From Candidatus Saccharimonadales bacterium (GTDB lineage Bacteria > Patescibacteriota > Saccharimonadia > UBA4664 > DATIHN01): a stretch of 64,000 nucleotides of DNA. Below the pieces are notes generated by a model. That model was not told where the DNA came from. It searched no databases and saw nothing but the letters and a program-made list of their open reading frames with translations. The DNA lies in assembly GCA_035480635.1 (NCBI GenBank), contig DATIHN010000016.1:76017-140016 (forward strand), read 5' to 3'. Of the stretch, positions 9,208 through 64,000 are shown piece after piece. A program made the translations under genes and the position numbers. Each line of letters opens with the position of its first letter. Positions within the stretch are counted from its first letter, which is position 1.

Positions 9208-10526
9208 ACTCCAGTACAGCTACTTGGCAGCTGCTCCCCGTTTTGGGCCTTGGTAAGCCAAGCCAGAGTGTCTTTATAGCTTTTTACCATAATGCTGTAA
9301 TGACTGGCATCGGGATAGGTTTGGATTTTGGCTGGCCCCGAACCGGCTCGACAAAGTAACGATAGGGCGTTGGTCTGCTGGTCGGGCAGGATAATATTAT
9401 CTTTTTGGCCCTGATTAATTAGTTTGGGCGTGGCCGTAGGTCCCGACCAGGACCGATTGGCCACCAAATCAGCCGCCAAATCGGGATAACTCGATGCTAG
9501 CGTAGAGGTTTTCAAAGCCGTTAAAAATTCCGGGGTGTAGACTTCTTCGGCTTTAGGCCAATATTTGACACTGTTGATGCAGTGTCCTAAGACGTCAGTT
9601 TTTAGAGTCGGGATCCACTTGGCTTGCAATATCGTATTAAGCGGAAAAGTCTGGTCGTAATAATCACTGTAGCTAACTAAAACATAGGGACCGAACCAAA
9701 CAATGTTTGCACCTCTGGCGATATCAGCCAAAGTTGTCGTAACATCGCTAACTGGCGCAAACGCCACCAGGCCTTTGATCTTTAGGTCTGGAGCATAAGA
9801 CGGTGCGATCTTATCAGCCCAAGCCACAGCCTGCCCACCCTGGGAATACCCAGCCAAGAACAGCCGGTTGCGGTCCAAATTTTTATAATCTCCCAGGTTG
9901 AAGGTTGCCCGAGCCGCATCCAAGACAGCTCGGCCCTCTAGTTCGCCCACCATGTAATGATGCAGCCGCGAACTATCGCGCATGCCTTCATAATCAGTAA
10001 TCACTACGGCATAGCCTTGGCCGGCATAAGCCGCCGCATGTGATTCATAGTTAGCCCAATTCGCTAAAGCTGGCACCTCTAGGCTGGCGGCGCATTCGTC
10101 GCCAATGCCGGTAGTTCCGGGTCCGAATGAGATTAGCGGGATTTTGCTAGATGTGTTGGTCCTTGGTAAATAGACCCGGGCGTAGAGGTCAATCTCCTGA
10201 CCTTGAGTATCAACACTGGTGTATTTTAGTAAGCGCTTGCTGATAGCGTTTTGAGCCGGCACGGTATCGGCACCGTAATTTTGTTTGGCCAGCGCATTCA
10301 CCTCCTCAACTGAATAATTCCGGATGACCTCCTGAGAAATTATTTTGCCGCCGGCGGGCTGATGAGAATGGCTAATTGGCAATATATCGCTAGGGGTTCT
10401 AAGAATCGAACGTTGTCCCAAGTAGACCCAGAGACCTAGTCCAATGACGATAATCAACAGTCCAGACAGCCAGTACTGGCGCTTGATGCGATTTCTGATT
10501 GATTTGAAAGTTATTTTTTTGCCCAT
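9204..10526 (-). CDS. membrane-anchored secreted alpha/beta hydrolase (secretory lipase-like)
   Basis: N-terminal TM/signal anchor. GYSQGG nucleophile elbow (LAGYSQGGQAVAWA). 440 aa. Confidence 0.6.
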   Translation of the reverse strand: MGKKITFKSIRNRIKRQYWLSGLLIIVIGLGLWVYLGQRSILRTPSDILPISHSHQPAGGKIISQEVIRNYSVEEVNALAKQNYGADTVPAQNAISKRLLKYTSVDTQGQEIDLYARVYLPRTNTSSKIPLISFGPGTTGIGDECAASLEVPALANWANYESHAAAYAGQGYAVVITDYEGMRDSSRLHHYMVGELEGRAVLDAARATFNLGDYKNLDRNRLFLAGYSQGGQAVAWADKIAPSYAPDLKIKGLVAFAPVSDVTTTLADIARGANIVWFGPYVLVSYSDYYDQTFPLNTILQAKWIPTLKTDVLGHCINSVKYWPKAEEVYTPEFLTALKTSTLASSYPDLAADLVANRSWSGPTATPKLINQGQKDNIILPDQQTNALSLLCRAGSGPAKIQTYPDASHYSIMVKSYKDTLAWLTKAQNGEQLPSSCTGV

Positions 10527-37236: not shown

Positions 37237-37322
37237 CTTATTATTCTATCAAACTGCTTGCGCTTTGCTTGACATTACGAAATCTGGAGTCATAATAAAG
37301 CATAAGAATTAAAAGAAACATT

Positions 37323-37910
37323 ATGCCAAAAACTAAAACCAAACCAAACGGATTCAATCTCGCGCGAAAGTTAAACTTTAGTAAGAGCCAGCTGGCCGCT
37401 ATCATTGCAGCCGGTGTGGCTATCGGCGGCTTTGTGGCTTATCAAACTTTTGCCGCCACAGTACCACCGTCAAATCTAAGGCAAACCATATCTGGTGGCG
37501 CTGGCGGAGGCGGTGTGACAACTATTAGCACATGGGTTATTAACACAGTTTCGGCCACTCCTTATGGGGCAGCCACACCAGCTCTTAACATGAAAAATTC
37601 TGATCCTCACTACTGGCAAACAGGCAATTGGAATTTTTCTACGGGGTTCAATAAAACATCCGACTACTTGAAGTCGCTAACAAGCGATGGGTGGCCCAAG
37701 TCAAACACGTTTCTTTGTGGTAATTCAAATAGCTACTTCTATGGCATGGGGCCACTGCAAACCCCCTACGGACCATTGTACTTTGGCCAAGTCTACCGGC
37801 TCTACAACAACAAGTGGCAAGTCAAATGGGCCAATTACAGCACTGTTACCAAAGGTTGTTCGACATCAACGAATTGGATGGACGTAACTCCTGGACCCGG
37901 GAACCTGTAA
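37323..37910 (+). CDS. secreted hypothetical protein, paralog A (conserved MPKTKTK leader)
   Basis: The N-terminal 45 aa are shared with the downstream gene at both protein and DNA level (first 22 nt identical). The C-terminus is Asn/Tyr/Trp-rich. Confidence 0.6.
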   Translation: MPKTKTKPNGFNLARKLNFSKSQLAAIIAAGVAIGGFVAYQTFAATVPPSNLRQTISGGAGGGGVTTISTWVINTVSATPYGAATPALNMKNSDPHYWQTGNWNFSTGFNKTSDYLKSLTSDGWPKSNTFLCGNSNSYFYGMGPLQTPYGPLYFGQVYRLYNNKWQVKWANYSTVTKGCSTSTNWMDVTPGPGNL

Positions 37911-37945
37911 TTCGATAATCCAGAAATAAGGAGGTTATTTACCTT

Positions 37946-38473
37946 ATGCCAAAAACTAAAACCAAATCGAACGGGTTAAATCTTACCAAGCGCTTAAACT
38001 TCAATAAGGGGCAGCTGATCGCTATCATTGTGGCTGGTGTGGTCATTGGCGGCTACGTGGCCTACAAAACCTTTGCGGCCGGTCCGGCCACAGTTACGGG
38101 CTGTAAAACTCGAGTTAATGACCCAACTTATGGGCCACTAATATATGTCCACTTTACGGTTCGAAAATATGACCCAGATATGAATATCGCAGTCGCTTAT
38201 AAAGCCGATAAGATTAAGACCTACAGTAACGGCTACGTTATTGATCGCTCGGGCAACTGGTCGATTATTCAGCAGAGCGGTTTTAACAGTAATAATCGAG
38301 CCTATATGAACGGTGTTGATGGCAGTGTTGTCGACGACCCCTACTGGGAAGTCGATCTATTTAAGCCTGGGTGGCATTGGGGGTCTTACGCTCACCATGT
38401 AAGTTGGTTACCGTTTTGCGGTACCAGTGGCTCGCCGAGGAACATCTACATCGACTGGGGTCATTCGACCTAG
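37946..38473 (+). CDS. secreted hypothetical protein, paralog B (conserved MPKTKTK leader)
   Basis: Same leader plus TM. Unrelated C-terminal domain. RBS AAGGAGG before the ATG. Confidence 0.6.
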   Translation: MPKTKTKSNGLNLTKRLNFNKGQLIAIIVAGVVIGGYVAYKTFAAGPATVTGCKTRVNDPTYGPLIYVHFTVRKYDPDMNIAVAYKADKIKTYSNGYVIDRSGNWSIIQQSGFNSNNRAYMNGVDGSVVDDPYWEVDLFKPGWHWGSYAHHVSWLPFCGTSGSPRNIYIDWGHST

Positions 38474-41721: not shown

Positions 41722-41847
41722 TCTATCCCCTTTTGTTGGTACGAACTTAGATAAGTTACTTTGATTATATTCGGTTTTTGTTCGGTTTGTAAAGAGTTTT
41801 TCTCAAATAAATTTCCCTCACTCGGGAAGGCATTCTAACTTCTCTCC

Positions 41848-41925
41848 CCACCAATTTTTTATGTAAGCTCTTATTTCTTACCCCTGTAATACTTTGTATG
41901 GCCGTCGATACAAAAAAATTGGTGG
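41848..41925 (+). repeat. H1 hairpin repeat, copy a (forward)
   Basis: ccaccaattttttatgtaagc…[~40-nt loop]…cgatacaaaaaaattggtgg. A 13-14-bp stem including a 6-7-bp A:T run. Confidence 0.7.
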
Positions 41926-41951
41926 GGCTTGTTTCTTTTCTAGATCATCTT

Positions 41952-42004
41952 GAGCAGATTGCTCAGTCTATATCTCCCCTTACTTAGTTCTTCGCAATCT
42001 GCTG
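41952..42004 (+). repeat. H2 hairpin repeat, copy a (forward)
   Basis: gagcagattgc…[31-nt loop containing ctcccc]…gcaatctgctg. A 10-bp stem. Confidence 0.7.
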
Positions 42005-42055
42005 TTTGGATTTAATAAATACACTCTTCTAGCTGAGGTCTGAATTACTCCATTT

Positions 42056-42108
42056 AGCAGGTTGTGAGGGGTTTGGTAGTGGGAGAAAGTAAGCGAACAA
42101 CCTGCTCC
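42056..42108 (+). repeat. H2 hairpin repeat, variant copy b (reverse orientation, compensatory stem changes)
   Basis: cagcaggttg…gtagtgggagaaag…caacctgctc. A-to-G and T-to-C changes on opposite arms keep the stem paired. Confidence 0.65.
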
Positions 42109-42130
42109 TATTGATCCAAAAGATAAACTC

Positions 42131-42213
42131 CCCAGCCCATTTTTTTGTATCGACTAAGTTAGTAGTCGTAATGGGAGTATGAAGAGTCAGCTTACACAAA
42201 AAATGGGCTGGGG
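42131..42213 (+). repeat. H1 hairpin repeat, copy b (reverse orientation); it ends 20 nt downstream of the rpf stop
   Basis: cccagcccatttttttgtatcgac…gcttacacaaaaaatgggctgg. The ~100-nt block 42113-42215 is nearly identical to 50150-50252. Confidence 0.7.
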
Positions 42214-42232
42214 GGAGAAGTTAGTACCTGGT

Positions 42233-43387
42233 TTAAATAAGCCCGAGCTTGACGGAGCAGACCGGCCAGGGCGACCAGCCACGGCGGGCCTGAACGACTT
42301 TGGCAATCGCATCTTGAGTCGCGGGATCAGCGTCGCTTGGCAAACCGGTGCCGCCGTTTGATTGCCAGGTACCCAGATCGAACTGGTAGGCGCCATAATA
42401 ACCATTGCCGCTGTTACGGGTATAATTATTACCTGTTTCACAAACCCGCAAACGATACCAAACATCATCCCGAATCTTGGTACCGACATGAATCACTCGA
42501 TTGACGGGATTCACCAGATTGGCCACATTCAAAACTTGGCGCTGAACCTCAATGCCATCGTGATAATTAATTTTATAGGTCACATCGCGGCCGCCAACGC
42601 TACCTGCTTCGACCACTCGGCTCTCGCCCTGGTACATCGAATCATCACGAACGGTCTGAATATGATTAGCTAGATCCTCATGTTTAGTTACAACGACTTC
42701 CGTCACCCGAGTGATGGTAATGTTTTCGCCCGGCACAATTTGATTGCTCAATGGCACCGAGGTCGTATCTTGCTCCCCCATCGGTATGTGCTTTTCTTGC
42801 AATAAGCCAGCCACCGTAGTGGCTTGGGTCCGCAGTTGTCTAGTGGCGCCGTCAACGCTCAAGACCACTGGTTTGGCCCGTTTGACTACGACCTTTTCGC
42901 CCACCGTCCCATCGCCAACGAAGTTGGTCACGAAAGCATCGCTAAATTGGTCCTCGGGGTAGGTGTTAATCCCGGCATCCCCCGTGATCAAGCGCGGACT
43001 GCCATGCGGAGAATCAACCATCTTTTCGGTCGTGCCGTCTTGAACTAAAACTGGTCGGGCTCGGTACACGTTGATATTAAAGAAGCCAGTTGGAATTTGA
43101 GTGTTAGCAGCCGGCTCTACCAGATCGTGCGGTCCCAGTTTGGAATTTGTTCGCGCCAAAACTTCGCCCACGGTACTAGCGTCGGTCGTAAAGATGCGCT
43201 TTTGGCCATCCGCAAAGTAGCTAACCACCTTGGCCGAGTCGGCGTAGGCGCGACCCGTGGTGGGTAGTTTTCCGGCTAAGATTGCGTAAGTAACGATAAT
43301 GATGAGAATGCCGACCAAACCGTAGATGCGTGGTGCTGTCGGCACCCGGCCCCGGTGGGACCGATTGGTGTTGCCTAAAATCGACAA
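42233..43387 (-). CDS. resuscitation-promoting factor, RpfB-like (TM anchor, DUF348-like repeats, G5 domain, C-terminal Rpf transglycosylase-like domain)
   Basis: C-terminal WYRLRVCETGNNYTRNSGNGYYGAYQFDLGTW is the Rpf lysozyme-like signature with the catalytic Glu. TTG start. Confidence 0.75.
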   Translation of the reverse strand: MSILGNTNRSHRGRVPTAPRIYGLVGILIIIVTYAILAGKLPTTGRAYADSAKVVSYFADGQKRIFTTDASTVGEVLARTNSKLGPHDLVEPAANTQIPTGFFNINVYRARPVLVQDGTTEKMVDSPHGSPRLITGDAGINTYPEDQFSDAFVTNFVGDGTVGEKVVVKRAKPVVLSVDGATRQLRTQATTVAGLLQEKHIPMGEQDTTSVPLSNQIVPGENITITRVTEVVVTKHEDLANHIQTVRDDSMYQGESRVVEAGSVGGRDVTYKINYHDGIEVQRQVLNVANLVNPVNRVIHVGTKIRDDVWYRLRVCETGNNYTRNSGNGYYGAYQFDLGTWQSNGGTGLPSDADPATQDAIAKVVQARRGWSPWPVCSVKLGLI

Positions 43388-43594: not shown

Positions 43595-43960
43595 ATGAAG
43601 TTGACTGATGCAACCGAAGCCGTCGAAATCATCGAGGGTCGTGGCCCAGAAGAGATTGAACGTGTCATCGACAAGCACCTAGGTACAGCGCCACCGCTCT
43701 ACTACTGCAATGATCAGATCAGTGTCTTAGTTGTGGCTCGTACCAGTCAACCTGATGACGGACGCACGTGGCACCCAGCCAAAACATCCCGATCCGATGA
43801 GAAGACACAGTCGGCGAGGGTTGCCTCTGCCATCATCTCTGAGTTCAGAGCCCAACCAGAGGAATTTTTCTTCGAAGCCAAGGCCGAGGAAGTAGCTGGG
43901 AGTCCAGCACTCTGTTTTACCCGTCGGAACGTCGCAAAAGATCTGCGGGTCGTTGAATAA
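43595..43960 (+). CDS. small hypothetical protein, paralog 1 (121 aa from MKLTDATEAV)
   Basis: Shares …GTAPPLYYCNDQISVLVVARTSQPDDGRTWH with the downstream gene (…RTAPLRFAIDRELGVLVTEAAGNEAPDDSRQWV). Confidence 0.5.
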   Translation: MKLTDATEAVEIIEGRGPEEIERVIDKHLGTAPPLYYCNDQISVLVVARTSQPDDGRTWHPAKTSRSDEKTQSARVASAIISEFRAQPEEFFFEAKAEEVAGSPALCFTRRNVAKDLRVVE

Positions 43961-44009
43961 CCCGCTTACCACGAGGAATCCGCCTCGGCGGTAGGCGGGT
44001 TTCTCATTT
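43961..44009 (+). terminator. intrinsic terminator, copy 1 of a duplicated 49-nt sequence
   Basis: cccgcttacc…ggtaggcggg stem followed by tttctcattt. Nearly identical sequence (one mismatch) at 44786-44835. Confidence 0.6.
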
Positions 44010-44010
44010 G

Positions 44011-44038
44011 TTGACAAAACTCGTGTTTATGATAGAAT
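44011..44038 (+). promoter_or_regulatory. strong sigma70 promoter (TTGACA-16-TGaTAGAAT, extended -10)
   Basis: Consensus -35, TG motif and a -10 matching 5 of 6 consensus positions. AAGGAGG RBS then GTG at 44085. Confidence 0.6.
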
Positions 44039-44500: not shown

Positions 44501-44785
44501 ATGACCGATGCGCCCAGCGATGACGACCTGACGACACAAGAACGCGAGCTGCTAGCCGCCCTGCTCTACGGCTCAACCGAAGAGAAAGCTCTGGCCTTAA
44601 GAGCACTCGGCGTCATCCCGGCCGAGGAACTATTAGATGAGTTCGGCAAGCTGACAGACGAGCAAAAGGCTGTCGTCATTGACAGAGCAATTTTCTTGCG
44701 CTACGGCCCGACCGGCATGAACGATGCGGAGGCCATCGTCGCTGCCATGCAAGAGTGGCACGATGGCAAGCTCAAGCTCCCCTAA
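44501..44785 (+). CDS. small acidic helical protein (94 aa, MTDAPSDDDL…)
   Basis: Start placed at the ATG immediately after the upstream stop. The longer ORF-track version (from 44387) would overlap the preceding gene in another frame. Confidence 0.45.
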   Translation: MTDAPSDDDLTTQERELLAALLYGSTEEKALALRALGVIPAEELLDEFGKLTDEQKAVVIDRAIFLRYGPTGMNDAEAIVAAMQEWHDGKLKLP

Positions 44786-44835
44786 CCCGCTTACCACGAG
44801 GAATCCGCCTCGCCGGTAGGCGGGTTTCTCATTTT
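44786..44835 (+). terminator. intrinsic terminator, copy 2 of the duplicated sequence
   Basis: Same hairpin plus T-tract as at 43961-44009. Confidence 0.6.
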
Positions 44836-45394
44836 ATGACAACAGAAACTTTTTGATGAACCCGATCTTGAACGTCAAAGTATAGGCGATTGAAAAAGCA
44901 TGCCCTCTGGTTCTAACCCGCAAATCAGCTGCGCCAGGGACGGTGGCAACGCTTGGATCAACGGTATTATCGCTGAGTGGCCTAATGGTCAGTAATTTTT
45001 TGGCTAAATTTTCATCTTCACTTAGATACTGATCGGCTATTTTGGCAGCCGTTAGAAAGGCCGGACTGCGCTTTTGCATGGTAACTGGGTTGAGATAATT
45101 GCTGTCCAGTACACCACAAATGCTGACGATCCGTTGTGTTAATTCTGGATTCCTGGCCGCTAGAATGATAGTCGCACTAGCCCCGGCACTGGCACCTACT
45201 ACACCAATCAGGTTCCGGCAGCCCTCCGCCGCAGCCAGCAATTTTTGATACTTGGGTTCAAAATCTCCGCCATCCTCCCAGGCTAATTCGCACACATGCA
45301 GCCGCACTCCGTACAATCGCCAGAGTGGCCTAAGCCAGATGTAGAGACGTTCGTTGTTGGTGCCGAGGCCAGGGATGAGGATAACGTCGCGCAT
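44834..45394 (-). CDS. alpha/beta hydrolase (esterase/thioesterase-like)
   Basis: GASAG nucleophile elbow (IGVVGASAGASATI). 186 aa. Start abuts the pcrA stop. Confidence 0.55.
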   Translation of the reverse strand: MRDVILIPGLGTNNERLYIWLRPLWRLYGVRLHVCELAWEDGGDFEPKYQKLLAAAEGCRNLIGVVGASAGASATIILAARNPELTQRIVSICGVLDSNYLNPVTMQKRSPAFLTAAKIADQYLSEDENLAKKLLTIRPLSDNTVDPSVATVPGAADLRVRTRGHAFSIAYTLTFKIGFIKKFLLS

Positions 45395-47506
45395 CTAGAC
45401 TTTGGTAATCGGAGCGAAGCTCAGGCTTAGTTTTTTGACACCCAAATGAGCAAAGGCGGCTGTCAGCTCATCACCATCGACGCTGACCACGATGCCCTCA
45501 CCAAATTTGTTGTGGCGGATTTTATCGCCGGCCTGAAAGGATTTGTGAACTGGTTCGAGTTTAGGCACTTCAACTTCTTGGGCCGTTTGGGAGCGAGTCA
45601 GCTCCGGTGGAATATCGAGCAAAAAGCGCGACGGCGGGTTGTGGCTGGTGTTGCCATAAAGCAAGCGCGAATTGGCATGAATCAAATAAAGCCGCTCGCG
45701 AGCCCTCGTCATGCCGACGTAGCAAAGCCGGCGTTCCTCCTCCAGCTCGGCTAAATCAATTTGGCTGCGGCTATGGGGGAAAACGTTTTCTTCCATGCCG
45801 GTCATGAAAACGATGGGAAATTCCAGCCCTTTAGCGGCATGCAGCGTCATCAACGTCACGGCATTGGTATCGCTAGAATAATTATCAAGATCCGAGATTA
45901 GCGCGATCTCTTCCAAAAAGCCTTCCAGGCCAATATCGTCGTAGGTTTGAGCCACACTGATTAATTCTTTGACGTTTTCGACCCGCTCCGCGGCTTGAAT
46001 GGTGCCATCGTCCAGCCATTCCAGGTAGCCACTGCGTTTGATGACGAGCTCCAAAAACTGGCTGGTCAGCATGCCTTCACTGGGCTCCTGCAAACCCCGA
46101 ATCAACAAGGCAAATTGCTTGAAGGCTTGGACCGCCCTTGGCGTCAGCCCGGTGATTTGATCAGCACTTTCCAGGGCCTCGAGCAAAGGTAGCCCGCTGC
46201 TATTCTTGAAAGCAATCAATCGTTCCAAACTTTTATCACCCAACCCCCTGGGTGGTAAATTAACGATGCGGTTGAAGTTGATCAGATCCTCGGGTTGATA
46301 AATGAAGCGCAAATAGCCCATGACGTCCTTGATCTCACGGCGCTCGTAGAACCGAGTACCGCCGACGATTTTGTAGGGCAAGTTGTTGCGTAAAAAAGCT
46401 TCCTCCAGTGAACGCGATTGAGCATTGGTCCGATAAAGCACCGCAAAATCGGCCAGCTCGCGCTTTTCTTCGATAATCAGCCGATTGACCTGCAGCACGA
46501 TGGCCTCGCCCTCTTGAGCCTCGTTGTAAACTTGCTCGATGACTACGCCGTGGCCGCGATCGTTTTCGGTCCAAAGCTCTTTATGGGAACGTTGTTGGTT
46601 TTTGGTAATGATGGCGTGCGCTGCATCCAGAATGTTTTTGGACGAGCGATAATTCTGCTCGAGTTTAATGACGGCAGCTTCGGGATAATCTTTTTCGAAA
46701 TCGAGAATGTTTTGAAAGTTGGCCCCCCGCCAAGAATAAATTGATTGCCAATCATCCCCCACTACGCAGATATTGCGGTGGGTCGCGGCTAGGAGCTTAG
46801 CAAAAATATATTGGGCCCGATTGGTGTCTTGATACTCATCAATCAGGATGTATTTGAACTGATCCTGATATTTTTTGAGCAGTTCGGAATTGTGGCGAAA
46901 GGCCTTAACGACTTCAAAGATTAGATCGTCAAAGTCCAACGCGCCGGCATCGCGCAACAGCTTTTGATAAACTGTGTAGACGCGTGCGGCCGTGGTTTGG
47001 GCCGGCCCGTAGGCCACGGCTTTGTAGGCGGCCGCATCAATTAGTTCGTTTTTGGCACTCGAAATCAAACCGGCAATCATCGGCGGTGCAAACTGCTTTT
47101 CGCTAATGCCCAGGCTGCGCATGGCAGCTTTAGTGGCAGCTAGCGCATCTTGTTGGTCGTAGATGATGAAGCTGGCTGAGAGCCCCAGATCTTTGGCTTC
47201 TCGGCGCAGAATCCGTACGCAAATCGAATGAAAGGTGCCCATAAACGGCAGATAGTTGCGATTATCGGGGTGCTTGCCTAGTAGCTCCAACACGCGCTTA
47301 CGCATCTCCCCGGCCGCTTTGTTCGTAAAAGTCACGGCCAAAATATTCAGCGGGCTGATGTGACAATCGGCCACCAAATAGGCGATCCGGTGGGTCAGGG
47401 CCTTGGTTTTGCCGCTCCCCGCCCCGGCCAACATCAAAACTGGGCCTTCCGTTGTTTGAACGGCCTGGCGTTGGGGTGGGTTTAGGTCTGTTAGTAAATC
47501 TGGCAC
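45395..47506 (-). CDS. pcrA: ATP-dependent DNA helicase PcrA/UvrD
   Basis: LNPPQRQAV…GPVLMLAGAGSGKT (Q motif plus Walker A). UvrD motifs throughout. 703 aa. GTG start. Confidence 0.9.
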   Translation of the reverse strand: MPDLLTDLNPPQRQAVQTTEGPVLMLAGAGSGKTKALTHRIAYLVADCHISPLNILAVTFTNKAAGEMRKRVLELLGKHPDNRNYLPFMGTFHSICVRILRREAKDLGLSASFIIYDQQDALAATKAAMRSLGISEKQFAPPMIAGLISSAKNELIDAAAYKAVAYGPAQTTAARVYTVYQKLLRDAGALDFDDLIFEVVKAFRHNSELLKKYQDQFKYILIDEYQDTNRAQYIFAKLLAATHRNICVVGDDWQSIYSWRGANFQNILDFEKDYPEAAVIKLEQNYRSSKNILDAAHAIITKNQQRSHKELWTENDRGHGVVIEQVYNEAQEGEAIVLQVNRLIIEEKRELADFAVLYRTNAQSRSLEEAFLRNNLPYKIVGGTRFYERREIKDVMGYLRFIYQPEDLINFNRIVNLPPRGLGDKSLERLIAFKNSSGLPLLEALESADQITGLTPRAVQAFKQFALLIRGLQEPSEGMLTSQFLELVIKRSGYLEWLDDGTIQAAERVENVKELISVAQTYDDIGLEGFLEEIALISDLDNYSSDTNAVTLMTLHAAKGLEFPIVFMTGMEENVFPHSRSQIDLAELEEERRLCYVGMTRARERLYLIHANSRLLYGNTSHNPPSRFLLDIPPELTRSQTAQEVEVPKLEPVHKSFQAGDKIRHNKFGEGIVVSVDGDELTAAFAHLGVKKLSLSFAPITKV

Positions 47507-48810: not shown

Positions 48811-48914
48811 GCGAATGCATCGATGGTTCTACCCACCCAGAACGCCAACATGATGCGCTCATGCTAATAAATTTGCAAGACTTTCAGACGGCAACCAACC
48901 TAAGCCATTTTCCC

Positions 48915-48993
48915 TAGCCCATTTTTTATGTAAGCTCTCATTTCCTACTACCATAACCATTCGTGCTTATGTCGATACAAAAAAATGGGCTAG
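48915..48993 (+). repeat. H1 hairpin repeat, copy c (forward)
   Basis: tagcccattttttatgtaagc…gtcgatacaaaaaaatgggcta. The outer stem covaries relative to copy a (ccaccaa/ttggtgg becomes agcccat/atgggct). Confidence 0.7.
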
Positions 48994-49017
48994 GGTGTAT
49001 ATCTTTTAGATCATCTG

Positions 49018-49070
49018 GAGCAGATTGCTCAGTTTATTTCTCCCCTTACCTAATCCTTCGCAATCTGCTG
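49018..49070 (+). repeat. H2 hairpin repeat, copy c (forward); it ends 30 nt downstream of the tpiA stop
   Basis: gagcagattgctcagtttatttctccccttacctaatccttcgcaatctgctg. Confidence 0.7.
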
Positions 49071-49100
49071 TCTGGATAATTGAAGATGGAGAGTAGCGAA

Positions 49101-49847
49101 TTAGTGCTGGGCGGCTTCGACGATCCGAGCAAATTTGCTAGCGTTCACGCTAGCCCCACCCACCAGCAAACCATCGACCTCCCCCAGGCTCAGAAAGGCC
49201 GCAGCATTATCACCATCAACGCTGCCGCCATAGAGCAAGCGAATTTGGGCGGCTGATTCGCCGAATAGTTCAGTGATGGTTTGATGAATCAATCTGGCTA
49301 CCGGAATAACATCGTCCGGCCGGGCAAAATTACCGGTGCCAATTGCCCAAATCGGTTCGTAAGCCACTACGACTTGATCTAAATCTTCTTTGCTGACAAA
49401 GTGCAAACCGACCGTCAACTGATCCACGACAACCCGGCTGGTTAGCTCCTCACTACGTTCCAGCAACGTTTCGCCAACGCACAAAATTGGTTGGATGCGA
49501 TTGCGCAAGGCCGCCGCCACTTTTTTGGCCACCAATAAATTATCCTCGCCAAAAACCTGACGCCGCTCGGAGTGGCCGATGATGGCATAATCGACCAGGC
49601 CCTTGAGCATGGCGGCCGAGGTTTCGCCGGTGAAGGCGCCATTGTCCTCGAAATAAAGATTTTGCGCGCCCAGTTTGAATTTTTTGTCATCGAGCTCACG
49701 CGACACCGGGTAAACATCGAGCATGGGTGGGCACAGCACGACTTCGGCCTGGCCGGCATGGACCATTTTGGCCAGTTTTTGGTAATAAGTACTAGCCGCC
49801 CCTGGGCTAAAGTGTTCCTTCCAATTGCCAACAATCAGTTTTTTCAT
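49101..49847 (-). CDS. tpiA: triosephosphate isomerase
   Basis: MKKLIVGNWKEHF N-terminus. Catalytic-His region IIGHSERR. YGGS near the C-terminus. Confidence 0.92.
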   Translation of the reverse strand: MKKLIVGNWKEHFSPGAASTYYQKLAKMVHAGQAEVVLCPPMLDVYPVSRELDDKKFKLGAQNLYFEDNGAFTGETSAAMLKGLVDYAIIGHSERRQVFGEDNLLVAKKVAAALRNRIQPILCVGETLLERSEELTSRVVVDQLTVGLHFVSKEDLDQVVVAYEPIWAIGTGNFARPDDVIPVARLIHQTITELFGESAAQIRLLYGGSVDGDNAAAFLSLGEVDGLLVGGASVNASKFARIVEAAQH

Positions 49848-49925
49848 ATCACCTCGATTGTTTGTATCATAAGCGTTTTGGGCTGAAGTATCAATTTCCC
49901 AATCACTCGTGGTCAGATTTCATGA

Positions 49926-49985
49926 TTTCTCTCCCCACCCAGCTTCATCCGCTCCCACCCTATCTCCTCCTATCCTATCTGCCCT
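49926..49985 (+). repeat. pyrimidine-rich (C/T) tract preceding M3
   Basis: ttctctccccacccagcttcatccgctcccaccctatctcctcctatcctatctgccc. Similar C/T-rich tracts occur at 63750-63800 and 41812-41850. Confidence 0.5.
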
Positions 49986-49994
49986 GCGTCTTTT

Positions 49995-50070
49995 ACCGTT
50001 CGGCCTTAAGACTGGCTCGCGAGTTATCGTCGCTCGCTAATAGGACGAACAGTCTTTCGGCTCGAACGGT
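49995..50070 (+). repeat. M3 hairpin repeat, copy a
   Basis: accgttcggccttaagactg…[loop with the palindrome gctcgcgag]…cagtctttcggctcgaacggt. Outer 8-bp stem and inner 7-bp stem. Identical apart from a few substitutions to 63818-63893. Confidence 0.7.
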
Positions 50071-50094
50071 GTATTTTCTCATTAAAATCCATAT

Positions 50095-50156
50095 AGCAGA
50101 TTGCGAAGATGTAAGTAATGGGAGAGATTGACTGAGCAATCTGCTCAATTTGAACC
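50095..50156 (+). repeat. H2 hairpin repeat, copy d (reverse orientation)
   Basis: cagcagattgcgaagatgtaagtaatgggagagattgactgagcaatctgctc. Confidence 0.7.
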
Positions 50157-50169
50157 AAAAGATAAACTA

Positions 50170-50250
50170 CCCAGCCCATTTTTTTGTATCGACTAAGTTA
50201 GTAATCGTAATGGGAGTAGGAAGAGAGAGCTTACACAAAAAATGGGCTGG
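50170..50250 (+). repeat. H1 hairpin repeat, copy d (reverse orientation); it ends 10 nt downstream of the pgk stop
   Basis: cccagcccatttttttgtatcgac…gcttacacaaaaaatgggctgg. Confidence 0.7.
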
Positions 50251-50259
50251 AAGAAGAGC

Positions 50260-51423
50260 CTACTTTTTGATTAGCGGCTCCAAGCCGGGTAATTTATTAC
50301 CAGCCATTAATTCTAGTCCAGCTCCACCACCAGTGGAAACAAAGCTAAAATCATCGGCCATATGAATTTTATCCAGGAATGCCGCCGTATCGCCACCGCC
50401 AATAATGCTGGTGGCCGAAGTTGCCGCAATAGCCCGGGCCAGTTTTTTGGAACTTTTGGCAAACTGGTTAAATTCAGCCACACCGACCGGGCCATTCCAG
50501 ATAATAGTGCCGGCTGACTTGATAGCTTGAGTGGCTTTGGCTGTAGTGGCCGGACCGATATCGGCAATGATGTCGCCAGTTGATACTTCGTCCAAGTTTT
50601 TAACGGTAGCCTTAGCGCGCGGTCCTAGTGAGCTCGCTACTACCACGTCTACTGGCAAAATTAGGCTGACTTTGCGCTTCGTGGCTTCGGCGCTAATATC
50701 ACGCGTCAACTGCATCTGGTCCTTTTCATAGAGACTCTTACCGACTTCCCCGCCGTCGGCCGCAATGAAAGTGTTGGCCATAGCACCGCCGATTAACATG
50801 CCGTCAACTTTTTTGAGCAGGTTTTCAATCAAGGGAATTTTAGTTGAAATTTTGGCTCCACCAACGATGGCAAATAGTGGTCGTTTGGGATTATCCAGAG
50901 CCGAAGTGATAGCCTCGACTTCCTTTTGGACTAAAAAACCAGCGGCCGCGGGTAGCAGTTTGGGTAAACCGACGACTGAAGCGTGAGAGCGATGCATAAC
51001 GGTAAAATCATCATCAACATAAGCGTCACCTAAAGCTGCCAGGGACTTAGCAAACTTAGCATCATTGGCTTCCTCGCCCTTTTTCAGGCGCAAGTTTTCG
51101 AGCATGATGACATGACCTGGTTCCATATCGGCAATAGTTTGCTCGACTGCGGGTCCGGTTGAATCCGGCACAAAAGCCACGGCTCGTTTGAGCAAGCGCG
51201 ACAGCACTGGCGCAACCGGAGCCAAACTTTCCCCCTCCTTACTCAAATGACTAATTAAAACGACTTTGGCTTGGTGTTTAATTAAATATTGAATGGTTGG
51301 CAGAGCGGCTCGCAGGCGCTGGGTGTCTTTGACTTTGCGCTTTTCGATTGGGACGTTCAAAGCCGCTCTGAGCAAGACCACCCGGCCCCGGACATCTAGA
51401 TCTTCAACCGATTTAAGCCGCAT
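50260..51423 (-). CDS. pgk: phosphoglycerate kinase
   Basis: VLLRAALNVP region and nucleotide-binding motifs (…GGGDTAAF…). 387 aa. Confidence 0.92.
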   Translation of the reverse strand: MRLKSVEDLDVRGRVVLLRAALNVPIEKRKVKDTQRLRAALPTIQYLIKHQAKVVLISHLSKEGESLAPVAPVLSRLLKRAVAFVPDSTGPAVEQTIADMEPGHVIMLENLRLKKGEEANDAKFAKSLAALGDAYVDDDFTVMHRSHASVVGLPKLLPAAAGFLVQKEVEAITSALDNPKRPLFAIVGGAKISTKIPLIENLLKKVDGMLIGGAMANTFIAADGGEVGKSLYEKDQMQLTRDISAEATKRKVSLILPVDVVVASSLGPRAKATVKNLDEVSTGDIIADIGPATTAKATQAIKSAGTIIWNGPVGVAEFNQFAKSSKKLARAIAATSATSIIGGGDTAAFLDKIHMADDFSFVSTGGGAGLELMAGNKLPGLEPLIKK

Positions 51424-61595: not shown

Positions 61596-63689
61596 TTACT
61601 CTCCTTTCTTCAGTTTAGAGGGTTTTGCCGCCGGCAACGTTAGACTAAAGGTCGTGCCCTTCCCCGGCTCTGATGACTCCAGGCGAATTAATCCGCCCAT
61701 CCCTTCCATCAGCATTTTGGAAATATAGAGGCCGAGACCGGTCCCATGAGTCGTGTCCCTGGCACTCCCAGGCTTGAGACTCCCCGGCGTCGCTCGCGAG
61801 AGAATGTTTTCTTCGGCCTGCTGAAACTTTTTAAACAGCAGATTGTGTCTCTCTGGCGGAATGCCTTCGCCGGTATCGGTCACAAAAATGCGAACGTAGT
61901 CAGGATGCGATTCCAGCCGCATAGTAATGCTACCGCTGTGGGTAAAGGTTACAGCATTTGAGAGCAAATTAATCAAAACTTGTCGCAGCTTGATTTGATC
62001 AGCCCTGGCCACAATTTTACCTCGACCATCCAGAATCTCCAATTTCAGTTCAAGACCTTGTTGACCAACAGTATGCTGATATTCCTTAACCAACCCTTGT
62101 AGCAGTTCTGGCAAATCAACCGCCGTGAGCTCAAATTTAATGCGATTTTGCTCTAGTCTCGAGGTATCTAGGAAATCGTTGACCATTTGGATCAGGCGTC
62201 GGCTAGAATCATAAATGTCTTTGGTCATACCGGCTAGCTCCGGATTTTTAACTTTCGGAATGACGTGCTCAGCGATCATGGCGGCGTTGCCCATGATGAC
62301 AGTTAGCGGCGTTCTAAGTTCGTGCGAGGCGATCGAAAAGAACTCATCCCGAGCTCGCTTCAGGCTGCGTTCAAGAGTGATGTCTTCGAATAAAATGATA
62401 CTCCCAATCACCGGCGCTTGACCCGGTGATTCAGTCACCGGTGCCACATAGATCCGCAAGAATTTCTCTAATAGTGGGACCTCGCCCAAACTATGGCTGG
62501 TGATGGTGTTAATAGCATTGCTGATGGTTTGCTCCAACTTAATTTTGGGCATGAGTCGTTCGAGCTCGGCTAGTTTTACCTCCTTGGCTCGTTTCGGGTC
62601 GGCAAATAGAATTCGTCTGGCGGCGTCATTAACCATGGTGATATTTAGGTTGGCATCGGTCATGATGAAACCGATGTTAAAAGCATTAATGGAAGCTCTC
62701 AGCCTGGTATGGGCTTCTTCTAATTGCTGCCGGTTTTGGCGGAAGTATTGGCTAAGCAGTAGGGCAATCTGGCCAAACTCGCTGGTACTGGTGCCGAGTT
62801 CTTCGAGATTATTAGGGTCCTTAGTAGCAAGCGTTCGAGATATTTTATTCAAAGGGTTAGTCACGTAGCGAGTCAAAAACCAGAGTAGGGCTAGTAGTAC
62901 CGGGATAACGATGATAACGAAGTTTTTCACGCGCTGGGAATTCTGGGTATAGAGTTCACGAATGCTTGGAGCATCAGCTGTAGCCTGTAAGCGGGCGATG
63001 GTTTGGCCATTCATATCGCCTAGAGTCTTGTCGATGACGACCTGGCCCGTGCTCGGATCAGGCATGGTTGGGTTATCGTTGCCGCTCAGTAAATTGACGT
63101 TACTTTTTGAATCGTTACCCAGGCGTTGGCGAAATTCAGCGTTGTAGAGCCGGCCGACAAAGAAGTAGCCTTGGGGCACGGTTTGTCGGTTCGGGTCATT
63201 AGATGGGTGGATGGTGGCAGCTCGGATCTCGACGATGCCTGAAGATGTCCGCACAAAAAAGTGGGCTAGGCGCTGTTTAGTAAACACTTGAGCGATTTCG
63301 GCTTTCGATAACGGCAAGTCGATGGCCGAGACATTCGAACCATTATTCTGATAAACCTTGGTGCCATCGGTCCGAAAGACCCAAATAGCATCGACCTGAT
63401 AGGTGCTAAGAGCAGTATCCAGGTTGTCTTGAGCAAATTTTTTGGTGGGTTTTTTGACGAAAGCCACCATATCATCCCAATAGGTGTAGTCGGTTGCCAA
63501 GTTGGCCTGGGGTTCACCATCCAAGCGGTAAACGGCCGAAAACAGCCGTTGGCGTTCATCGACGACGTCTTGGTATAGAGTCTCGGTGTGGCGCTTTTCA
63601 CTCTGTGATAAGACGAATAGACCGATGGCTGCGGCAGCTAGCAGAGCAAGCATCAGCAGTATGACGCGATATTGGGTTTTGATTTTCAC
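61596..63689 (-). CDS. sensor histidine kinase with a large extracytoplasmic sensor domain
   Basis: N-terminal TM, ~250-aa periplasmic domain and a second TM. HisKA H-box SHELRTPLT. HATPase_c G-boxes (DTGEGI, GTGLGL). Confidence 0.85.
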   Translation of the reverse strand: MKIKTQYRVILLMLALLAAAAIGLFVLSQSEKRHTETLYQDVVDERQRLFSAVYRLDGEPQANLATDYTYWDDMVAFVKKPTKKFAQDNLDTALSTYQVDAIWVFRTDGTKVYQNNGSNVSAIDLPLSKAEIAQVFTKQRLAHFFVRTSSGIVEIRAATIHPSNDPNRQTVPQGYFFVGRLYNAEFRQRLGNDSKSNVNLLSGNDNPTMPDPSTGQVVIDKTLGDMNGQTIARLQATADAPSIRELYTQNSQRVKNFVIIVIPVLLALLWFLTRYVTNPLNKISRTLATKDPNNLEELGTSTSEFGQIALLLSQYFRQNRQQLEEAHTRLRASINAFNIGFIMTDANLNITMVNDAARRILFADPKRAKEVKLAELERLMPKIKLEQTISNAINTITSHSLGEVPLLEKFLRIYVAPVTESPGQAPVIGSIILFEDITLERSLKRARDEFFSIASHELRTPLTVIMGNAAMIAEHVIPKVKNPELAGMTKDIYDSSRRLIQMVNDFLDTSRLEQNRIKFELTAVDLPELLQGLVKEYQHTVGQQGLELKLEILDGRGKIVARADQIKLRQVLINLLSNAVTFTHSGSITMRLESHPDYVRIFVTDTGEGIPPERHNLLFKKFQQAEENILSRATPGSLKPGSARDTTHGTGLGLYISKMLMEGMGGLIRLESSEPGKGTTFSLTLPAAKPSKLKKGE

Positions 63690-63749: not shown

Positions 63750-63800
63750 CTTACCCCCCAGCACTATTCTCCCGCTCCCACTCAATCTACCCCCACGCCT
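63750..63800 (+). repeat. pyrimidine-rich tract (cluster 4)
   Basis: cttaccccccagcactattctcccgctcccactcaatctacccccacgcc. Confidence 0.45.
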
Positions 63801-63817
63801 TTTGCCCAGCGTCTTTT

Positions 63818-63893
63818 ACCGTTCGGCCTTAAGACTGGCTCGCGAGTTATCGTCGCTCGCTAATAGGACGTACAGTCTTTCGGCTCGAACGGT
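63818..63893 (+). repeat. M3 hairpin repeat, copy b
   Basis: Matches 49995-50070 apart from a few substitutions. Confidence 0.7.
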
Positions 63894-63914
63894 TATATTT
63901 ATTAAACATTCATA

Positions 63915-63966
63915 CAGCAGATTGCGAAGAACAAAGTAGGGGGAGATATTAACTGAGCAATCTGCT
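63915..63966 (+). repeat. H2 hairpin repeat, copy e (reverse orientation)
   Basis: cagcagattgcgaagaacaaagtagggggagatattaactgagcaatctgctc. It is followed by tagatgatctag and the start of an H1 arm (…cccaccaa) truncated by the window edge. Confidence 0.65.
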
Positions 63967-64000
63967 CTAGATGATCTAGAAAAAGACACCCACCCACCAA

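Follow-up and report, generated by a model that had tools for sequence, protein, structure and literature searches.

The 64,000-nt stretch of DNA analyzed here, called the window, comes from a Candidatus Saccharimonadales bacterium (assembly GCA_035480635.1, contig DATIHN010000016.1, positions 76,017 to 140,016 of the forward strand). It carries genes for an RpfB-like protein (DUF348-G5-transglycosylase) and for sensor histidine kinases, together with pgk, tpiA, a glyoxalase gene and pcrA/uvrD. Four intergenic spacers among these genes hold clusters, 190–390 bp long, of a repeat that folds into hairpins. The clusters comprise five copies of a unit of about 180 nt, termed U, and two copies of a second module, M, and no open reading frame (ORF) is common to the copies. 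An earlier note on this DNA had described four clusters built from three modules (H1, H2 and M3), all of which were confirmed at the places given. With moderate confidence we read the family as a lineage-specific, non-coding, non-autonomous interspersed hairpin repeat, probably mobile or recently mobile, whose conserved unit is the hairpin and not a pair of terminal repeats.

Repeat Units and Clusters

The U unit consists, in order, of an outer terminal motif (approximately ACTTCTCYCCCCASC), the H1 hairpin, a T-rich linker (containing GTTTATCTTTTAGATCA), the H2 hairpin and a short A/T-rich extension. Module M begins with the same terminal motif, which is followed by a C/T-rich tract and the nested hairpin M3. 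H1 and H2 had been taken for separate modules; both hairpins are real, but they are inseparable, being joined by the conserved linker in all five copies, so that the true unit is H1-linker-H2. The modules stand tail to tail with their terminal motifs pointing outward, and they occur in both orientations and in three architectures over the four loci. Inverted copies of the terminal motif, about 15 nt long, border each cluster; three ends are clean (0–1 mismatch) and the remaining ends are degenerate. When M was aligned with inverted U, only the terminal 16 nt or so was convincing (full-length score 34–35 against a shuffle mean of 24, standard deviation 4; 4–7 of 200 shuffles scored as high). 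The element termini, the H2 loop and the C/T tract each contain a TCTCCCC box.

Cluster 1 (41835–42224) comprises U1a in forward orientation, a spacer of about 32 nt and U1b in reverse orientation, tail to tail. It begins 8 nt after the stop codon of the rpfB-like gene (42233–42235) and lies upstream of a promoter-like site at 41793..41764. On the plus strand, H1 of U1a (41846–41927; subtype CCACCAA/TTGGTGG) has a 19-bp stem with a bulged A at 41861 and a 43-nt loop, and H2 of U1a (41953–42003) has a 10-bp stem and a 31-nt loop with an invariant TCTCCC-NN-TAC. On the minus strand, H2 of U1b (42057–42106) is a variant in whose stem one A:T pair has become G:C and one C:G pair has become T:A, both changes being compensated, and H1 of U1b (42130–42213) is of subtype CAGCCCA/TGGGCTG. 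The entire cluster can fold back on itself (−168.7 kcal/mol, z −15).

Cluster 2 (48905–49096, plus strand) is a single U, referred to as U2 (H1 48912–48995, H2 49019–49069), with a degenerate inverted terminal motif (49085–49096), and lies 4 nt from the tpiA stop codon (49101–49103). Cluster 3 (49925–50258) is M plus an inverted U. Its M module (49925–50083, plus strand) contains the terminal motif, the C/T tract (49925–49985) and the M3 nested hairpin (49995–50070), and U3 (50084–50258, minus strand; H2 50095–50145, H1 50170–50251) ends 1 nt from the pgk stop codon (50260–50262). Cluster 4 has the same design and runs from 63750 to 81 nt past the window end. Its M module (63750–63904, plus strand) has the M3 hairpin at 63818–63893, and U4 (63905–64000, minus strand; H2 63917–63966) is cut by the window end within H1, which starts at 63989. 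It was completed from contig L010, where the full copy (9609–9790) abuts a histidine-kinase stop codon at 0 nt. The earlier note had thus found clusters 1 and 4 in the right places, and only their extents, given as 41812–42215 and as ending at 64000, needed revision.

Cluster 4 is located between the second and third of three consecutive sensor histidine kinase genes (61596–63689 and L010 5215–9608), of which two encode HisKA_7TM/GAF proteins and one a CHASE4 protein followed by a response regulator.

A 31-base pattern for H2 matched the five copies and none of 100 shuffled sequences, and the known copies scored E ≤ 1e-44 with both nhmmer and the covariance model. These two methods detected no further copies of the modules, either across the window or within about 14 kb of additional flanks. 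The sequences flanking the different copies are unrelated to one another. The window is 99.97–100% identical to contigs of the metagenome-assembled genome (MAG) GCA_964637125.1 and of Logan assemblies of SRR9179559-63. An assembly artefact was ruled out, as this independent MAG is identical over all of the clusters and has every cluster in the same orientation. The sole differences between the window and the MAG over 21 kb are six single-nucleotide polymorphisms within 52 nt (47363–47414) at the 5' end of pcrA/uvrD, a gene called as 679 aa in the MAG and as a 703-aa ORF in the window.

Hairpin Structure and Compensatory Changes

The H1 stem measures 19 bp, longer than the 13–14 bp first proposed, and is made of 9 G+C-rich pairs, 6 T:A pairs, 1 unpaired purine and a further 4 bp, closed by a loop of 43 nt. 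The arms read CCCCASCCMA-T6-R-TGTA. The H1 hairpins, with their G+C-rich stem base, fold as RNA at −25 to −41 kcal/mol, and their folding z-scores are −4 to −7 as RNA and as single-stranded DNA alike. H2 has the 10-bp stem, the 31-nt loop and the conserved loop motif that had been described, the motif TCTCCC-NN-TAC being invariant in 5/5 copies. M3, which forms a nested hairpin, has a folding energy of about −37 kcal/mol and contains a perfect 8-bp palindrome, CTCGCGAG.

In an alignment of the five copies, standard pairs account for 99.3% of the 145 pair cells defined by 29 stem pairs. Seven of the 29 pairs have changed on both sides and one has changed on one side, and this is a terminal pair; every internal stem substitution is therefore compensated. 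None of 500 shuffles reached the observed values of pairing and double change, and when the partner was slid by 1–3 columns the pairing dropped to 39–50% with zero or one double change. The copies are 17–25% diverged and their stems still pair perfectly. Identity between copies is 84–92% in the stems, as opposed to 65–73% in the loops and linker, and the bulged purine is retained in all five H1 copies. The H1 and H2 helices, including the extrahelical purine in H1, are thus kept intact by paired changes while the loops drift. The individual compensatory changes quoted in the earlier note for H1 and H2 are present on the alignment, and its view that the helices are under constraint holds.

Two H1 subtypes can be distinguished, CCACCAA/TTGGTGG in U1a and U4 and CAGCCCA/TGGGCTG in U1b, U2 and U3. 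Cluster 1 had been described as having inverted ends about 365 nt apart, like those of a miniature inverted-repeat transposable element (MITE). This description did not survive the alignment: the outer ends are of different subtypes and each covaries with the partner arm of its own hairpin, not with the other end, so cluster 1 is two units placed tail to tail. The conserved object is therefore the local hairpin and not a terminal repeat pair at the level of the cluster.

All of the double changes are from one Watson-Crick pair to another, and there is no internal G.U pair among the 145 cells; the compensatory changes consequently do not discriminate between RNA and DNA hairpins. Compensatory changes are described as "common" in REPIN hairpins (PMC3116915), which are mobile DNA, and so the pattern alone does not favor RNA over DNA.

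The pairing might also have a purely mutational origin, in segmental duplications or decaying junk DNA whose stems are kept palindromic by template switching in quasi-palindromes, or by gene conversion, and not by selection. Template-switch repair can alter both arms simultaneously and could thus have changed them together here, and the two H1 subtypes alone cover three of the seven double changes. However, at least four independent double changes fall outside the subtype split, specific loop motifs are invariant beside drifting loop bases, and the flanks of the copies are unrelated. Furthermore, the bulge would not survive template switching, whereas all five H1 copies have retained it, which argues against a simple "perfecting" of palindromes. 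We regard this explanation as very improbable.

M3 behaves differently from the other hairpins. Its core is identical at 84 of 85 positions between clusters 3 and 4 (49986–50070 and 63809–63893), as against 38 of 69 in the adjoining C/T tract and 9 of 20 in the 3' flank. This contrast could be due to sequence-level constraint or to recent conversion, and the latter would also accord with the mutational explanation.

Conserved Motifs in Loops and Termini

Several loop motifs are conserved, namely GTAAGCT and GTCGATAC, which adjoin the H1 stem, and the H2 motif described above, which persists despite changes in the stem and elsewhere in the loop. The H1 loops are pyrimidine-rich and include CTCCC in three of five copies (U1b, U3 and U4), and the C/T tract of M includes CTCCTCC. 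The C-rich UCCC motifs of Rsa/RoxS-type small RNAs of Firmicutes pair with Shine-Dalgarno sequences. By the same token, the repeats could represent a family of small regulatory RNAs, possibly derived from 3' untranslated regions (3'UTRs), whose UCCC/UCUCCC loops could pair with Shine-Dalgarno sequences, and in which M on the opposite strand would form a CU-rich leader, the M3 hairpin and a U tail. The near-invariance of M3 also suggests a sequence-specific role. On the other hand, the elements of clusters 1 and 4 have no promoter-like site either internally or at their start, and the plus-strand candidates near cluster 3 are weak (9 of 12). The elements occur in both orientations relative to the flanking genes, their truncated and inverted-dimer architectures would be odd for RNA genes, and no similarity was found in Rfam. 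The loop motif is also present at the element termini, which fits a protein-binding site equally well. A small RNA family is, in our opinion, quite unlikely.

A protein-binding role would make the elements DNA sites for a recombinase or another DNA-binding protein, such as attC-like folded sites, invertible segments or operator arrays, with the GGGGAGA/TCTCCCC boxes and the M3 palindrome CTCGCGAG as putative binding sites. The recurrence of the TCTCCCC box in the parts listed above would be in keeping with this proposal, as would the inverted terminal motifs that border every cluster and the sequence invariance of M3 with its palindrome. Also reminiscent of attC is a hairpin that is conserved in structure but variable in sequence, has a conserved extrahelical base and a loop that varies, and lies directly 3' of an ORF. 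However, the attC core sites are absent from the H1 arms, the neighbors are syntenic housekeeping genes and not cassettes, and the Pfam tables, which extend over the window and about 14 kb of flanking sequence, list no integrase or invertase. Moreover, the MAG and the window agree on the orientation of every cluster. DNA sites of this type appear improbable, slightly more so than small RNAs. Membership in integron attC cassettes in particular was ruled out, since R'' (RYYYAAC) and R' (GTTRRRY) are missing from all five H1 and H2 stems, the neighbors are syntenic genes and not an array of promoterless cassettes next to intI, and there is no integrase in these tables.

Placement of the Clusters

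Each of the four clusters starts 0–8 nt past the stop codon of its upstream gene, which is on the minus strand in every case (8 nt for the rpfB-like gene, 4 for tpiA, 1 for pgk and 0 for the histidine kinase), and stops short of the promoter-like site of the next gene. The earlier note had recognized this adjacency, although it counted three of four clusters. The stop-proximal order is stop codon, H1 and T-rich linker in three of the four clusters (U1b, U3 and U4) and is reversed in cluster 2.

The pgk, tpiA, rpfB-like and histidine kinase neighbors are syntenic in relatives. The pgk-tpiA spacer is 412 nt in the window as compared with 44 (L003), 54 (L017) and 37 nt (L030/L031) in related Saccharimonadales contigs, and the spacer after tpiA is 290 nt as compared with 83–87 nt. 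The −10 region of tpiA (CAAAA(A)CNCTTATGAT) and its ribosome-binding site are conserved in the relatives and are found in the window just beyond the insert. No match to the U or M modules was detected in the related contigs with nhmmer or the covariance model. These sequence comparisons show the copies to have been inserted into short spacers that separate housekeeping genes. No common target sequence was visible when the flanks of the four clusters were read directly.

The pgk-tpiA spacer, which holds cluster 3 in the window, is occupied differently in a fourth relative (L018; TIM 74% identical), in which an unrelated 126-aa GIY-YIG ORF is present on the opposite strand (9580–9960). The ORF was inserted independently, and the spacer therefore seems to be a recurrent landing site.

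Placement of this kind could mean that the repeat is a cis-acting 3'UTR RNA element selected by the host, in which H1 and the U-rich linker terminate transcription or insulate after the stop codon, or in which the hairpins protect the mRNA 3' end, or RNase III cleavage uncouples pgk, tpiA and their neighbors; the copies would then persist by function. Position between stop codon and promoter-like site in 4/4 clusters would suit such an element, and so would the run of stop codon, H1 and linker in U1b, U3 and U4. The linker has at least 5 T per 8-nt window starting 0–2 nt after the H1 stem in all five copies, as read from the alignment, and a T-rich stretch follows M3 on the opposite strand. 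The G+C-rich H1 base, the RNA folding energies, the perfect pairing in diverged copies and the presence of an RNase III gene are also in agreement. The orientation is not uniform, however, as U2 is oppositely oriented and U1a is distal to the stop codon. H1 has a G+C-rich base and is followed by the T-rich linker, but its 43-nt loop (canonical 3–8 nt) and the T:A run within the stem are unlike canonical terminators, and H1 was not called in a terminator scan; terminators of the canonical type do occur in this genome (repeat D6). The lack of internal G.U pairs is unusual under RNA-level selection, and relatives keep the same gene pairs without any such element. We consider a host-selected 3'UTR element to be unlikely, although it is the most serious single rival to a mobile repeat.

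A second repeat in the window, of 60 nt with 95% identity (43958–44017 and 44783–44842, plus strand), does fold as a canonical intrinsic terminator, in which UUUCUCAUUU comes directly behind a 17-bp hairpin (−29 to −32 kcal/mol). Its copies begin exactly at the TAA stops of two small plus-strand genes (43595–43960 and 44501–44785), and it is thus another hairpin abutting stop codons that has been copied inside the same 22-kb zone. In addition, a 43-nt direct repeat (37318–37360 and 37941–37983, 88% identical) is found at the 5' ends of two tandem paralogous ORFs, 37323–37910 and 37946–38473, which have no Pfam match.

Searches for Related Sequences

The earlier note did not recognize the sequence as any described family, and the searches bear this out, with no match in Rfam or in five public collections. 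At the gathering threshold, Rfam 15 gave no match in the window beyond three tRNAs, and a permissive scan of the clusters (E ≤ 10) returned only miRNA-hairpin noise with E ≥ 0.8. A known RNA family was excluded by these two scans. Degenerate H2, H1 and M3 patterns had no matches in viral contigs, and the H2 and H1 patterns had none in JGI metagenomes. The H2 pattern also had no match among GTDB species representatives, which exclude the source genome, so that this negative says little on close relatives; the nearest representative is an uncultured Saccharimonadales with 69% PGK identity. Cluster 3 had no blastn match in plasmids and phages, and the concatenated modules, translated in six frames, had none among 5.8 billion proteins. 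A covariance model built from the copies recovered the known copies alone when searched for more copies or relatives. No close relative of this organism is present in the searched collections, and the family may therefore be called an orphan in the sense of being restricted to its lineage as sampled so far. In the literature searched, no REP-, BOX- or MITE-like repeats were found for Saccharibacteria or the candidate phyla radiation (CPR).

Hints of additional copies come from the ends of assembled contigs. Logan k=31 contigs that enter M3 from the unique flank end exactly 30 nt into the stretch common to both M3 copies, which validates the use of contig ends to locate the borders of repeats. 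Inside H1 there are three other such ends, at 41869 (L037-39), 42193 (L033-35) and 50221 (L002); the first two each recur in three samples and the last is seen in one contig. The terminal 30-mers of these three ends are unique within the 78 kb examined. They are most simply accounted for by closer copies of U1a, U1b and U3 in other parts of the genome or in strains that occur together with this one.

Discussion

The repeat is short, non-coding, dispersed and modular, is found in both orientations, is insertional at tolerated sites and has stems maintained by paired changes, which is the profile of bacterial interspersed hairpin repeats. For a repeat of this type, copying would rely on an enzyme that recognizes hairpins folded in single-stranded DNA, in the way that REP/REPIN sequences are recognized by RAYT or IS200/IS605-type HUH transposases. 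Copying from a folded single-stranded hairpin would explain the lack of target duplications. Only those element lineages with intact hairpins would go on being copied, giving rise to the compensatory pattern, and the surviving copies would be those in places where insertions are tolerated, namely after a stop codon and before the promoter that follows. When transcribed as part of a 3'UTR, H1 with the U-rich linker would probably terminate transcription weakly or insulate, and RNase III would probably target the long stems. Such RNA-level effects, weak termination or insulation and RNase III cleavage, are likely to be side effects.

The closest functional analogue is REPIN/REP-BIME, by analogy of organization and behavior; membership in that family is not established and the arms are not REP-like. 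REP, REPIN and BIME elements with their RAYT (TnpA-REP) in Pseudomonas and E. coli are also non-coding and extragenic, and their replicative unit is a hairpin of two inverted arms with a less conserved spacer. They share the compensatory changes across the hairpin, the lack of target duplication and the mosaic clusters in alternating orientation, and they are sited in 3'UTRs and operon spacers, where they have secondary effects on mRNA. In the REPIN system an HUH transposase works on folded single-stranded DNA and makes no target duplications. Unlike REP, whose arms are imperfect palindromes of 20–40 nt with a conserved GTAG-like head, the repeat described here lacks a GTAG-type head, its arms are not themselves palindromes and its stem has a T:A run. 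The loop of 43 nt is far longer and has conserved asymmetric motifs, H2 and M3 are fixed extra parts, the host belongs to the CPR, and no RAYT was seen in the Pfam tables of the window and flanks.

Other families offer partial parallels. The BOX elements of Streptococcus pneumoniae, boxA-boxB(n)-boxC, are modular and have no known transposase. By organization only, with no relationship of sequence to be expected, they are similar in having a few sub-elements variably combined, strong predicted structure and an intergenic location near genes; the modules here differ in being tail to tail with inverted terminal motifs and not in A-B-C order. Correia elements (CREE) of Neisseria and ERIC/IRU of enterobacteria are 100–400 bp long, have inverted ends and internal deletion variants, and form long hairpins when co-transcribed, which can serve as RNase III targets, terminators or mRNA stabilizers. 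Correia elements have 26-bp terminal inverted repeats and a TA target duplication. In contrast, no duplication is seen here, and the covariation is within each H1 and not between element ends.

Of the three possibilities raised in the earlier note, a MITE, an mRNA-stabilizing or processing element and a small RNA family, the MITE is favored most. Empty orthologous spacers in four relatives, modules in both orientations and in different combinations, and the contig breaks speak for it, and the elements share with MITEs their short length, multiple copies and lack of coding capacity. The ends are ambiguous as terminal inverted repeats, the 15-nt motif being clean at three ends and degenerate at the others, with different H1 subtypes at the two ends of cluster 1. 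Lacking a target-site duplication, the elements fall outside the classical, DDE-transposon-derived MITEs, and no parent insertion sequence is apparent from the Pfam tables of the window and about 14 kb of flanks.

A number of observations weigh against the mobile repeat that we favor. No consistent target-site duplication was found at the four clusters, the sole candidate being an offset CCGTA at cluster 4. The Pfam tables of the window and about 14 kb of flanks contain no transposase, RAYT, integrase, invertase, recombinase or reverse transcriptase, and specifically no Y1_Tnp. Neither empty-site, moved-copy nor inversion alleles were seen in Logan contigs of the five runs, contigs that break 30 nt into repeats. 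All of the observed copies fall within 22 kb. The stop-proximal units of three clusters share one orientation relative to the upstream gene, and in them a T-rich tract follows H1, which fits an RNA role; the 84/85 identity of the M3 core next to flanks that are 45–55% identical is not predicted by a pure selfish model. A purely selfish element accounts least well for the invariance of M3 and for the strict adjacency to stop codons.

There is some room, which we judge to be small, for a different kind of system. It might be a functional RNA or DNA hairpin system, for example a 3'UTR regulatory RNA family with invariant anti-Shine-Dalgarno-like UCUCCC loops and an M3 that binds protein or RNA. 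Alternatively, it might be a class of hairpin-recognizing mobile elements that targets post-stop nucleotides by way of an enzyme unrelated to RAYT or IS200/IS605. Together these options are doubtful, ranking below a host-selected 3'UTR element and a little above small regulatory RNAs.

The mobile hairpin repeat, as we prefer to see it, is apparently the first example of a hairpin repeat in a Saccharimonadales genome. On present evidence it introduces no new principle, and the family alone opens no long-standing question. Genomes of Saccharimonadales and of the CPR are very small and gene-dense, and the repeat adds 190–390 nt to spacers that are 37–90 nt in relatives; a structured repeat of this kind shows that such genomes still host proliferating non-coding DNA. 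It also explains the recurrent breaks in short-read contigs of this organism. Its strict placement after stop codons, its compensated stems and its near-invariant M3 make it a compact case for considering at which level, DNA or RNA, hairpin repeats are maintained. Discovery of a mobilizing enzyme would extend hairpin-dependent transposition to the CPR.

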